A stretch of 64,000 nt of DNA from Octopus vulgaris. Its lineage: Eukaryota. The DNA lies in NCBI GenBank assembly GCA_951406725.2, contig OX597824.1:11036001-11100000 (forward strand). The letters run 5' to 3'. The position numbers and the translations under genes were made by a program. Below, piece by piece: positions 10,683 through 58,561 of this stretch (position 1 is the stretch's first letter; the number at the start of each line of letters is the position of its first letter). Under the pieces are notes generated by a model. That model did not search any database. It worked only from the letters and a program-made list of their open reading frames with translations, and was not told the origin of the DNA.

Positions 10683-11385
10683 TTTCAAGCCTAGCCAGGC
10701 TCATGGGCCCGGTTTCCAGGTTTCTGTGGCGTATGTGTCCCCTCCCCCAGCTGGACGGGACGCCAGTCCATCACAGCGATACTCAAGAAACAGGAAGAAA
10801 GAGAGAAAGTTGAGGCGAAAGAGTACAACAGGGGTCACCACCCCACCTCCCCCACATGGTTTGGATAAACATTATTTTTTTATACACCCATTTCAAGCCT
10901 AGCCAGGCTCATGGGCCCGGTTTCCCGGTTTCTGTGGCATATGTGTCCCCCCACCACTATCAGCTGGACGGGATGCCAGTCCATCGCAGCGTTACTCAAG
11001 AAACAGGAAGAGAGAGTGAGAGAAGTGGTTGTATACTGTCAACTTAATGTGACAGTCCTGTGAGGGAATTACACCACCGCTGTTTAGCCCTAGGAAGCAT
11101 CGACGCTTCCTGTCGGCCTTGACACATTTCCTGTGTCCTTATATATTTACGAAGGGGAGACAAACACTCCCAACAGCTAGGCCTGCATCTAGAGACACGC
11201 ATGTTTCAGGGTCTTTGCCCGTAGCGAAAGAGTACAACAGGGGTCGTCACCACCCCTGCCGGAGCCTCGCGGAGCTTTTTGGTATTTTCGCTCAATAAAT
11301 ACACACAACGCCCGGTCTGGGAATCGAAATCGCGATCCTCCGACCGCGAGTCCGCTGCCCTAACCACTGGGCCATTGCGCCTCCA
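10683..11385 (-). mobile_element. Two SINE family C copies (tRNA-derived head with a TCG anticodon-like loop); the second is interrupted at 11031-11221
   Basis: Minus-strand head GGAGGCGCAATGGCCCAGTGGTTAGGGCAGCGGACTCGCGG...TTCGATTCCC; duplicated tails starting at 10683 and 10892. Confidence 0.85.
11031..11221 (-). mobile_element. 5'-truncated hammerhead-bearing Penelope/retrozyme-like fragment
   Basis: Minus strand reads C-GGG-CAAAGA-CCC-T-GAAAC-ATGCGT-GTC (stem II, core, stem III), followed by a hairpin series collinear with 57519-57683; it splits a SINE C copy. Confidence 0.7.
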
Positions 11386-46152: not shown

Positions 46153-47730
46153 TTATTTCTTTACTACCCACAAGGGGCTAAACACAGAGGGGACAAACAA
46201 GGACAGACAAACGGATTAAGTGCGTAACTGGTAGTTAATTTATCGATCCTGAAAGGATGAAAGGCAAAGTCGACCTCAGTGGAATTTGAACTCAGAAAGT
46301 AGCAGCAGATGGAATACCACCTATTTCTTTACTACCCACAAGGGGCTAAACACAGAGGGGACAAACAAGGACAGACAAACGGATTAAGTGCGTAACTGGT
46401 AGTTAATTTATCGATCCTGAAAGGATGAAAGGCAAAGTCGACCTCAGTGGAATTTGAACTCAGAACGTAGCAGCAGATGGAATACCACCTATTTCTTTAC
46501 TACCCACAAGGGGCTAAACACAGAGGGGACAAACAAGGACAGACAAATGGATTAAGTGCGTAACTGGTAGTTAATTTATCGATCCTGAAAGGATGAAAGG
46601 CAAAGTCGACCTCAGTGGAATTTGAACTCAGAACGTAGCAGCAGATGGAATACCACCTATTTCTTTACTACCCACAAGGGGCTAAACACAGAGGGGACAA
46701 ACAAGGATAGACAAATGGATTAAGTGCGTAACTGGTAGTTAATTTATCGATCCTGAAAGGATGAAAGGCAAAGTCGACCTCAGTGGAATTTGAACTCAGA
46801 ACGTAGCAGCAGATGGAATACCACCTATTTCTTTACTACCCACAAGGGGCTAAACACAGAGGGGACAAACAAGGACAGACAAACGGATTAAGTGCGTAAC
46901 TGGTAGTTAATTTATCGATCCTGAAAGGATGAAAGGCAAAGTCGACCTCAGTGGAATTTGAACTCAGAAAGTAGCAGCAGATGGAATACCACCTATTTCT
47001 TTACTACCCACAAGGGGCTAAACACAGAGGGGACAAACAAGGACAGACAAACGGATTAAGTGCGTAACTGGTAGTTAATTTATCGATCCTGAAAGGATGA
47101 AAGGCAAAGTCGACCTCAGTGGAATTTGAACTCAGAAAGTAGCAGCAGATGGAATACCACCTATTTCTTTACTACCCACAAGGGGCTAAACACAGAGGGG
47201 ACAAACAAGGACAGACAAACGGATTAAGTGCGTAACTGGTAGTTAATTTATCGATCCTGAAAGGATGAAAGGCAAAGTCAACCTCAGTGGAATTTGAACT
47301 CAGAAAGTAGCAGCAGATGGAATACCACCTATTTCTTTACTACCCACAAGGGGCTAAACACAGAGGGGACAAACAAGGACAGACAAACGGATTAAGTGCG
47401 TAACTGGTAGTTAATTTATCGATCCTGAAAGGATGAAAGGCAAAGTCGACCTCAGTGGAATTTGAACTCAGAAAGTAGCAGCAGATGGAATACCACCTAT
47501 TTCTTTACTACCCACAAGGGGCTAAACACAGAGGGGACAAACAAGAACAGACAAATGGATTAAGTCGATTATATCAACCCCAGTGCGTAACTGGTAGTTA
47601 ATTTATCGATCCTGAAAGGATGAAAGGCAAAGTCGACCTCAGTGGAATTTGAACTCAGAACGTAACAGCAGACGAAATACGGCTACGCATTTCACCCGGC
47701 GTGCTAACGTTTCTGCCAGCTTGCCGCCTT
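46153..47730 (-). repeat. Tandem array of SINE A: eight 168-bp units plus one headed unit
   Basis: Unit starts at 46154, 46322, 46490, 46658, 46826, 46994, 47162, 47330 and 47498; outer TSD TGCCTAAGATAC (46141-46152 and 47732-47743). Confidence 0.95.
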
Positions 47731-49760: not shown

Positions 49761-50132
49761 AAATTGTATTTTTTTTTTACATGTGTAATTGGTGTAGAAT
49801 TTCATTGACCATTAAAGTATCAAAATAACATAAAGGAATAAAATCGATCCAGAAAATGTCCCAAATGGAATCCCCTGATGCCAATATTTCATGACTGATA
49901 TAGTTTGAGTCTGTGATCTGCTGCTGTTGTACTTAAGCAGTTTTTCCTATTCTCACTCATCTTGCACAAATATTTGTAATTTTTTAAATAATCTTATTTT
50001 TATAACTGAAAAAAAAAAACATCCAAAAAGAAAAAAAGAAAAAAAACAAACGAACAAACCAAATGGAGACTATACATACATACAATTGTATGGACATTTA
50101 TATACAACCATGCATACCACAGTCTTGCATAC

Positions 50133-51100
50133 CTATTTCTTTACTGTCCGCAAGGGGCTAAACACAGAGAGGACAAACAAGGACAGACACACGGATTAAG
50201 TCGATTATATCGACCCCAGTGCGTAACTGGTACTTATTTAATCAACCCCGAAAGGATGAAAGGCAAAGTCGACCTCGGCGGAATTTGAACTCAGAATGTA
50301 ACAACAGACGAAATACCTATTTCTTTACTGCCCTTAAGGGGCTACACACAGAGGGGACAAACATAGGCATACACATGGATTAAGTCGATTATATCGACCA
50401 CAGTGCGTAACTGGTACTTATTTAATTGACCCCGAAAGGATGAAAGGCAAAGTCGACCTTGGCAGAATTTGAACTCAGAACGTAACAACAGACGAAATAC
50501 CTATTTCTTTACTGCCCTTAAGGGGCTACACACAGAGGGGACAAACATAGGCATACACATGGATTAAGTCGATTATATCGACCACAGTGCGTAACTGGTA
50601 CTTATTTAATCGACCCCGAAAGGATGAAAGGCAAAGTCGACCTCGGCGGAATTTGAACTCAGAACGTAACAACAGACGAAATACCTATTTCTTTACTGCC
50701 CTTAAGGGGCTACACACAGAGGGGACAAACATAGGCATACACATGGATTAAGTCGATTATATCGACCCCAGTGCATAACTGGTACTTATTGAATCGAACC
50801 CGAAAGGATGAAAGGCAAAGTCAACCTCGGCAGAATTTGAACTCAGAACGTAACAACAGACGAAATACCTATTTCTTTACTGCCCTCAAGGGGTTACACA
50901 CAGAGGGGACAAACAAGGACAGACAAAGAGATTAAGTCGATTATATCGACCCCAGTGCGTAACTGGTACTTATTTAATCAACCCCGAAAGGATGAAAGGC
51001 AAAGTCAACCTTGGCAGAATTTGAACTCAGAACGTAGCGGCAGACGAAATGCCGCTAAGTATTTCGCCCGGTGTGCTAACGTTTCTGCCAGCTCGCCACC
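50133..51100 (-). repeat. Tandem array of SINE A: four 184-bp units plus one headed unit
   Basis: Unit starts at 50134, 50318, 50502, 50686 and 50870; outer TSD ACAGTCTTGCATAC/ACAGTCTTGCACAC. Confidence 0.95.
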
Positions 51101-56509: not shown

Positions 56510-57518
56510 TACTTTCACATTTGAACATAGTTTTTTGGGGGTTCTATTCTGAAATAGTGAATTGGTGTTTGGGGCTCTATCAACATTCCTGCTTCAGGCT
56601 ACTAGCATAGTTTCTCTTCCTTATATTAAATAATTAAAAGTAAATAAATGATCTATAATAATAATTGAAATCATATAGTCCTTGAGATATGCATTAATCT
56701 AATTTTCTCTGCTTTTGCAAATGTACTTGTGTAAGAAATACCTTTTTCACAGAGAAATATGTATATATTTTTAAAAGTATTTTATGAACAACATGTGAAC
56801 AAACAAAAAAATGTAAGTAGGAGATTTGTGAGTTGAGATTAAATCACATCATATTTAAGTTCTTCATTTTAATTAATTACTTCCTTTTTATACAACTGAG
56901 AATTTATAAAACAAGTAAAATGATACAGCTAATTTCTCTGAGACTGTCACTTGAAAAATCTCTTGGAATTTCTCATCATTTGACTGGCATTGGGCCAACA
57001 TATTCCATGGTATCATCTGCTGAAGAAGAATTTAACGAAATATCAGATATAAAGTGACAAGCCCCTGATTAATGTAGCAAGTGTAAAACAACTGATCCCA
57101 TGGTTAGGGGCTGTAAAGAGAGGAGTTAATATATTCAGAGTTATTTGAATTAAAGCTCTAATTTTAAACTTCACTGGAGTCAAACATTGCATCTCATCCC
57201 TCTGGTGGGAGTCAAAAATTTAAGGACTAGGATGAAGGACAATATCTCACTCTTTCTCTTTTACTCTTTTACCCGTTTCAGTCATTTGACTGTGGCCATG
57301 CTGGAGCACTTCCTTTAGTCGAGCACATCGATCCCAGGACTTATTCTTTGTAAGCCTAGTACTTATTCTATCAGACTCTTTTGCTGAACTGCTAAGTTAC
57401 AGGGACATAACCACACCAGCATTGGTTGTCAAGCGACGTTGGGGGGACAAACACAGACATACAAACATATACACACACATACATATACATTTATATATAT
57501 ATATATATATATAGTAAC

Positions 57519-58098
57519 GTATATTTGCCATTTAAATATGGCTAACCCCTAAGGGTGGATGCTACTGTAGTTTGTAGTCCCAGGAGGACACCTCCTCCAG
57601 CTGGCTATAGACACACTTTCTGTGCCCCATCAGTATTTGCAAAGGGAAGCCATCCTTCCTGTCTTCAACTTATGATACACACGGACTCGAGTTTCTGGGT
57701 ATTGACCCGTCATCGGCGTGTGACAATCACAGTTGTCGATGAAAAGTCGGTTCCCTTCACAAATACATATCCCTTTTCCAGTATCGTAAAGACACTGATA
57801 TCGAAAAGGTGTAATCAAGCAATAATAAATCTTAGAGCGAGTTATAAACAGTAGCTGCAACACATTGTGATGTATATTTGCCATTTAAATATGGCTAACC
57901 CGTTGAAGACGGGAAGGATGACTTCCCTTTGCAAATACTGATGGGGCACAGAAAGTGTGTCTATAGCCAGCTGGAGGAAGTGTCCTCCTGGGGCTACAAA
58001 CTACAGTAGCATCCACCCTTAGGGGTTAGCCATATTTAAATGGCAAATATACATCACGATGTGTTGCAGCTACTGTTTATAACTCGCTCTAAGATTTA
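57519..58098 (-). mobile_element. Penelope-type/retrozyme-like element: 353-nt monomer with partial tandem repeat and inverted segment
   Basis: GTATATTTGCCATTTAAATATGGCTAACCC repeats at 57519 and 57872; 57902-58098 is the reverse complement of 57519-57669 joined to 57826-57871; contains a hammerhead fold. Confidence 0.85.
57666..57735 (-). ncRNA. Type I hammerhead ribozyme (U4C variant, palindromic minimal stem III)
   Basis: Sense strand: CAACU-GUGAU-UGU-CACACG CCGAUGA C-GGGU-CAAU-ACCC-A GAAAC-UCGA-GUC^ CGUGUG-U-AUCAU-A-AGUUG; stems I, II and III all pair. Confidence 0.8.
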
Positions 58099-58561
58099 CT
58101 ATTTCTTCAATTATATATATATATATATATATACATATGCACATATATGCGATGGGCTTCTTTCAGTTTCCATCTGCCAAATCCACTCACAAGGATTTGG
58201 TCGGCCCAAGGCTATAGTAGAAGACACTTGCCCAAAGTGCCACATAGTGGGACTGAACCCGGAACCATGTGGTTGGTAAGCAAGCTACTTACCACACAGC
58301 CACTTCTATGCCTTCTCTGTAAATTTCTGAAATTATACCAGTCACCATCATTAACGTTCATTTTTCCATGCTTGAATGGGTCAAATGAATTATGTTGAGG
58401 CAGATTTTCTATGGCTGGATGATGCTCTTCCTGTCACCAACCCTCACCTGTGTTCCCCACGGCCAGACATCTTTTTCTCAGAAGATTGGAAATGAACAAC
58501 ATCACTTGTATGATGATAATGTTCATTTACAAATATTATGTGATGTCAAGACAAGGATGCA

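Follow-up and report, generated by a model that had tools for sequence, protein, structure and literature searches.

In this study, a 64,000-nucleotide stretch of Octopus vulgaris DNA (contig OX597824.1, positions 11,036,001 to 11,100,000, forward strand; hereafter the window) was analyzed for two inserts with hammerhead sequences, one near 11 kb and one near 57.5/57.9 kb. The first (11024..11220, minus strand) is a copy of a repeat family designated A. It lies within another repeat, is truncated at its 5′ side within the hammerhead and ends at the proximal of two 3′ end sites (+170, counted from the cut). What is left of the hammerhead is its 3′ half (11194..11220, minus strand) with stem II, GAAA, a near-palindromic stem III and GUC, the predicted cut being after 11194. 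Cleavage is not expected from this copy, because the 5′ break inside the hammerhead has removed the CUGAUGA core. The hammerhead is followed on the same strand by the 3′ arm of a long rod that extends stem I (11140..11193) and includes a linker and a first hairpin (11155-11171) described in the original prediction; the partner arm of the rod is missing from this copy. Thereafter come the predicted hairpins H2 (11121..11137, minus strand) and H3, an internal loop with two stems (11086..11118, minus strand), the 5′ strand of a helix P (11072..11080, minus strand), whose 3′ strand belongs to the tail past the end of this copy, and the hairpins H4, which is absent in many family A copies, and H5 (together 11035..11065, minus strand). 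The host is an abundant repeat (region 10690-11270, minus strand, as a whole). A second, insert-free copy of it follows at ~10850-10690, in which a few bases are replaced at the insertion site.

The second insert belongs to family B (57514..57901, minus strand). It comprises 1.1 units (unit positions 136-353, then 1-170), with a proximal-site end adjoining a TA run. Its minimal type I hammerhead is complete (57684..57722, minus strand; CCGAUGA core at 57716, palindromic stem III, GUC, predicted cut after 57684), with a C-A mismatch at the base of stem II. The 5′ arm of the rod (57717..57766, minus strand) is predicted to pair with 57633-57683, and the region 57527..57627 (minus strand) contains H2 (57609-57627), H3 (57575-57607), the 5′ strand of P (57560-57568), H4 (57545-57556) and H5 (57527-57542). 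When one unit length is taken directly from the window (57514-57866) and folded, the z value is -6.2, and the rod, H2-H5 and the strands of P all reappear. Adjacent to it lies an inverted, 5′-truncated family B copy (57902..58101, plus strand), which extends from unit position 15 through the tail to the distal site (~+215). This copy has a complete helix P (58003..58076, plus strand; 58003-58011 with 58068-58076) enclosing H4, H5 and a small hairpin, and the position of the proximal end falls inside that small hairpin. The 57.5/57.9-kb insert thus displays both 3′ end sites. The window also contains two tandem arrays (46154-47565, 168 nt, 8.4 copies; 50129-51050, 184 nt, 5 copies), which are assembled from pieces of an abundant dispersed repeat.

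The original prediction had described a conserved domain of ~165 nt downstream of the hammerhead in two highly diverged elements with little primary identity. The hairpins and linkers it listed were confirmed on the minus strand, at 11031-11221 and 57519-57683, and in the inverted copy from 57902, the base of stem II is mismatched in both elements (U-U and C-A), and the isolated fragments fold better than chance (z -2.9 and -2.2). The divergence was overstated: 96 of 170 aligned columns match (56%), the alignment score is 91, whereas none of 1000 shuffles scored above 71, and the 11-kb copy is matched at E 4e-8 by a profile built on sequence alone from families B and C. Judged by these alignments, the two regions are homologous by descent. 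TATAC does occur 163 and 165 nt after the cleavage triplet, but it is not a shared insertion end, since the 11-kb copy overruns it by 7 nt (to 11024), the 57.5-kb copy by 5 nt (to 57514) and the 57.9-kb copy by ~50 nt (to ~58101).

The genome (2.8 Gb, 227 contigs) was searched with the window copies as queries, and many close copies of each were obtained; the 2259-2882 first-look candidates per long query are not copy numbers. Past TATAC, the copies continue with what also lies upstream of the hammerhead, which makes the element a closed unit. Seven families (A-G) were distinguished, of which C to G were reached through chance matches in the flanks of other loci. Their units have 348-361 nt, i.e. 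lengths within 13 nt of each other, and a mutual identity of 51-77%. Tandem arrays were seen in families B and G, and a real family B array has a spacing of 352 nt in 7 of 7 cases. All seven families have a minimal type I hammerhead, identified by motif and folding, in which the core and stems I and II are accompanied by a stem III that is palindromic or nearly so; the core variant U3-A8 occurs in D and F, and G has AUA at the cut. In five of the seven families the base of stem II bears a symmetric mismatch replacing the first pair. The longest ATG-started frame per unit has 8-84 aa, by which a coding explanation was ruled out, and among the open reading frames listed for the first 60 loci, no frame with RT and GIY-YIG endonuclease was seen to belong to the element.

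Non-LTR retrozymes of animals are described in the accessible text of Cervera and de la Pena 2020 (PMC7229834) as tandem units of 150-450 bp with a type I hammerhead, no ORF and a GC content under 50%; the predicted circle is self-paired, and mussel units measure 350-390 bp. The octopus units are short and dispersed or in tandem, carry the type I hammerhead and no ORF, have a GC content of 0.40-0.45 and give a self-paired predicted circle. Therefore, the inserts are very probably truncated copies of ~350-nt hammerhead-bearing tandem units of this class, which are here non-autonomous Penelope-like elements without protein-coding capacity. The original prediction did not recognise the structure as a described motif, but the class to which the units belong has been described. 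At the gathering score, Rfam gave 0 matches in the whole window, and at E<=1 it gave 30 matches in 7 loci, all far below the gathering score and nearly all to microRNA models; this blank is weak, because Rfam missed these hammerheads too.

Several further loci were noted. One array (C2, loci L107-L115) has at least 9 units of an array-specific family B variant, in which both bases of the top H3 pair have undergone transversion and still pair. A family A array (L063:640-1700) contains unlike units. Stem II is degenerate and the H5 loop longer in two of them, and the third is standard, an arrangement suggestive of template switching or of a multimeric template. Further families may be represented by three other diverged single copies (L309:170-420, L189:4795-4973, L263:1975-2115), which were excluded from the family tests.

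All structures reported here are predicted, and the family folds were computed on majority lines. Circular folding was carried out for each family separately, with 40 shuffles each for families A-F, and gave z values of -6.2 to -9.7 for these six. One predicted layout emerged in all seven families, G included. In this layout, the hammerhead tips a rod of ~45 bp, formed by the 55 nt after the cut and an arm upstream of the core, and the rod opens into a multi-helix junction. Beyond the rod come H2, H3 with conserved internal-loop residues, helix P, which encloses H4 and H5 along with, usually, a small hairpin, and then further hairpins, so that about ten helices recur in the same order and topology. 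Helix P arises from pairing of what had appeared as a spacer between H3 and H4 with the tail past TATAC. Holding the hammerhead core open in the predicted circle costs 0.3-4.5 kcal/mol, by which measure the hammerhead is predicted to be free to fold. The structural unit is hence the whole ~350-nt repeat; a stand-alone domain of 165 nt was ruled out, as both the rod and P need sequence outside that stretch. The first hairpin of the original prediction forms in the isolated fragment only. It is locally favoured in five of seven families (A-E, z -1.8 to -2.6; not F or G), but its predicted occupancy in the whole unit is 0 in all seven, because its strand and the neighbouring linker pair with sequence upstream of the hammerhead and thus belong to the rod. 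H4, the small hairpin of the original list, is dispensable in family A, where one set lacks it in 23 of 30 matches.

For the detection of selected pairing, the pairs of one family were projected onto another via a sequence-only alignment and compared with a permutation null. All 13 directed comparisons between families yielded more pair-keeping double changes than the null (p<0.03). Three family pairs share no branch of the tree, and for these 7 double changes were observed against 2.2 in the null (A-E), 6 against 1.4 (B-D) and 16 against 6.0 (F-G). Among 21 real copies (three per family), double changes occurred in 6 of 8 pairs of P, 5 of 5 of stem I, 3 of 5 of inner H3, 1 of 4 of H5 and 1 of 6 of H2, and the covariation score was 0.373 compared with 0.210 after shuffling and 0.08-0.14 after sliding. 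The first hairpin had double changes in 0 of 5 pairs and was 75% paired, partly an effect of the alignment register. RNAalifold recovered stems I and II, H2, H3, P, H4 and H5 unaided, with double changes in 20 of 32 pairs, but not the first hairpin; in an earlier three-family alignment including decayed copies, only 2 of 17 pairs had double changes.

A selected RNA structure, as originally proposed, is thus supported by compensatory changes between families, but the helices listed at that time (H2-H5 taken alone) show significant covariation in only one of six family pairs. The subsets rod, P and tail, taken alone, are mostly not significant either. The best-covarying helix, P, was not in the original list and extends past TATAC. 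Sequence conservation of these stems explains why covariation in the listed helices is weak. In four of six family pairs, conservation is higher in the H2-H5 stems than at unpaired sites (0.87-0.92 versus 0.65-0.76), a pattern that would be expected of a protein-binding site. Within families, pairing is kept by 108 of 196 shared variants compared with 128 of 496 private variants; this signal is gone for non-CpG transitions (47 of 86 versus 99 of 199, p 0.52) and against loop sites (p 0.20 and 0.91).

These data bear on three alternative explanations of the pairing. Inversions and template switches could create and refresh complementary arms without any selection, so that pairing is a by-product. 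Inverted loci are indeed frequent (88 of 209), private mutations are equal in stems and loops, and shared variants lack a clear stem constraint, but about ten helices in the same order and topology in seven families, double changes over many of them and a unit length constant within 13 nt make this explanation very improbable. A slightly better, though still improbable, alternative is that the conserved stems act at the DNA level as internal promoter elements driving transcription of the arrays, the RNA fold being secondary. It would account for the conserved primary sequence of H2, H3 and H5, and newt satellite 2 has an internal promoter. It does not account for the double changes in P, H3 and H5, which alter the sequence yet keep pairing, and no tRNA gene was found in 4 unit-bearing loci. 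The least probable explanation, to which we give hardly any credence, is that the junction forms a second, undescribed ribozyme (ligase or nuclease), one of the functions the original prediction had considered. The conserved multi-helix junction and the conserved internal-loop residues of H3 fit such an activity. No Rfam family match supports it, although this counts for little where hammerheads are also missed; the 3′ ends described below include no third class, and the published retrozymes are, in the accessible text, circularised far better by RtcB than by themselves (PMC7229834).

For the analysis of 3′ ends, each end was assigned to its best family and recounted. Matches shorter than 45 nt or below 78% identity were discarded, as were breaks due to indels and ends that coincide with the edge of a locus; BLAST ends may overrun by a few bases into TA-rich flanks. 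The distribution is not random, as 265 of 297 distinct 3′ ends from all seven families fall in two sharp windows that make up ~44 of 355 positions, with 125 at +162 to +180 (proximal) and 140 at +213 to +237 (distal). The 5′ ends, unlike these, are spread. Because many loci had been chosen for covering the domain, sets chosen by the 5′ part alone were also used, in which 26 of 50 ends lie at +167 to +179, 16 at +216 to +232 and 8 elsewhere. In these sets, 27 of 29 family A ends and 15 of 21 family B ends are inside the two windows, and three of the six family B exceptions resemble internal indels. None of the 50 ends lies at TATAC, where clustering had been expected. The proximal end is located within the loop closed by P and the distal end past H6 in AU-rich sequence, and both clusters hold a fixed place in the fold across seven families at 51-77% identity. 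The proposed link between structure and 3′ end stands in this respect; binding of a reverse transcriptase is what we infer from it. Four contig runs with three species labels, which are not on record as RNA, cover the B unit. Some contigs depart from it at +169/170 and +216/217, among many other loose ends, and contigs are blind to expression and circularity.

The stretch between the two end sites forms an optional tail of 45-60 nt, compared with published tails of 30-40 bp. Among 209 loci, 88 are inverted, 32 tandem and 89 single. A TA run lies within 12 nt of 101 of 297 ends (background 2-6%), and the flanks are 70-90% AT; TA-run flanks occur in five families, with 0 of 44 ends in family E and 0 of 11 in family G. 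Tail, inversion and microsatellite bias are given as Penelope features in the accessible text of PMC8557442, and the units show the optional tail, the inverted 5′-truncated neighbour copy and the bias to AT-rich or (TA)n sites. The two end sites likely mark where a borrowed Penelope-type reverse transcriptase begins copying.

Autonomous Penelope-like elements of the same genome were also inspected. In a young family (loci L181-L187, L310, L311), an ORF lies upstream of a 781-aa RT-GIY-YIG frame that is uninterrupted in many copies; the family has a U3-A8 hammerhead and a pLTR with repeated CCAAT-like and TGACGTC motifs, which we take to be promoter motifs. It has two ends ~35 nt apart with TA flanks, little structure and an optional tail of ~35 nt with a small hairpin. 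A second, related RT-GIY-YIG family and a decayed Poseidon-like family were found as well, these clade names being our presumption, and all three families have hammerheads. In three loci (L278 on the minus strand, L284, L293), the pLTR of the decayed Poseidon-like family carries a tRNA-like segment and an AAT run, located between the ORF end and the hammerhead; boxes resembling A and B were seen by eye in the segment, in which ARAGORN called no tRNA gene. The fold is not present in the three autonomous families tested. By model, no unit region belonged to a coding element in 30 GIY-YIG loci, 14 extended regions and 29 Poseidon-like loci, and alignments of the 3′ ends of the three families with the units did not outscore those of shuffles (p 0.59, 0.88 and 0.12). 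Three short motifs that by eye appeared common to the units and the 3′ end of the 781-aa family were rejected, as their alignment scores did not exceed those of shuffles. Autonomous elements thus end at fixed sites without such a fold, and the fold may be needless for initiation; the search covered the best-scoring loci, so that the partner may be among other families.

With moderate confidence, we propose that a Penelope-type reverse transcriptase, provided in trans, uses the shared rod-plus-junction fold both as its binding site and as the site of an internal start. Arrays would be transcribed, hammerheads would cut pairwise via the palindromic stem III, and the unit-length RNA would probably be closed into a circle. 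The Penelope RT-endonuclease may then bind the H2/H3/P junction and nick AT-rich DNA, and copying would start inside the P-closed loop (~+170) or 45-60 nt downstream (~+215-235) and span from part of a unit up to many units. Template switching would yield the inverted copies. The main alternative, itself rather unlikely, keeps the same class of element but has the fold selected because it stabilises the circular RNA, aids its ligation or controls its hammerhead, with short local signals near the two ends setting the RT start sites. Published retrozyme circles are highly self-paired according to the accessible text of PMC7229834, the rod keeps cleaved ends together, the autonomous 781-aa family manages two ends with little structure, and loss of H4 is tolerated, all of which would agree with it. 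Against it stand the end clusters, fixed relative to the fold in seven families at 51-77% identity, and the conservation of H2, H3 and H5 in sequence as well as pairing, which is more than stability by itself would call for.

Earlier publications already describe retrozymes, the stem II mismatch and two-site initiation. Mobilisation by Penelope elements appears in the accessible text of PMC7229834 as a proposal only, and the base of stem II is mismatched (U-U) in an axolotl family described there. The animal retrozymes of that text have species-specific unit sequences and single predicted folds, whereas here seven families share one layout; a conserved covarying body, fixed 3′ ends and tails, all three present in the octopus units, are not reported in the text accessible to us. 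Li, Clavereau and Pollet (bioRxiv 10.64898/2026.07.22.740005), in the part available, likewise propose Penelope as the parent class, describe monomers, dimers and multimers, and leave the mobilisation mechanism open. In their Xenopus data, 24 of 57 retrozyme families resemble annotated elements, mostly Penelope pLTRs, whereas here the region was absent from all three autonomous families tested. The Anolis Poseidon element PAc, as presented in the accessible text of Frangieh et al. 2024 (PMC11167929), has an internal RT start at two sites downstream of the hammerhead in an AC-rich stem-loop, an optional tail between the two start sites and AT-rich targets; a region that binds protein is proposed to lie between the hammerhead and these sites. 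PAc is autonomous, with its start region within the ORF ~85-92 nt past the cut, whereas the octopus units have a non-coding region, sites at ~+170 and +215-235, a 45-60 nt tail and a covarying fold. The minimal Penelope hammerheads in the accessible text of Cervera and de la Pena 2014 (PMC4209133) share with the octopus units the palindromic short stem III for dimeric cleavage, and have an irregular stem II base and the U3-A8 core variant found here in D and F. In the octopus, by comparison, stem I is extended into the ~45-bp rod and stem II usually has a symmetric mismatch. In the literature covered, outside of which lay most subscription journals and Repbase, we found no multi-family covarying retrozyme fold tied to start sites and no cephalopod retrozymes.

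Tentatively, and with more doubt than for the binding and start-site proposal itself, the seven families may represent a long-lived superfamily of small, parasitic circular RNAs that have kept a single tertiary architecture. As a structured platform, it would capture Penelope reverse transcriptases in trans without sequence common to the autonomous elements and set two initiation sites, and the first hairpin, as an alternative hairpin of the rod arm, could be a switch that releases cleaved units for circularisation. A compact non-coding template for target-primed reverse transcription would be of interest for retrotransposon-based insertion tools, and since this genome has many uninterrupted copies of the 781-aa Penelope ORF, the question can be tested in vitro. 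How animal retrozymes get reverse-transcribed and which RNA signal the Penelope reverse transcriptase recognises are open in the accessible literature. On both questions, the seven octopus families offer a structure backed by covariation and exact predictions of the start sites, besides genomic signs of Penelope-type mobilisation (tails, inversions and TA targets).
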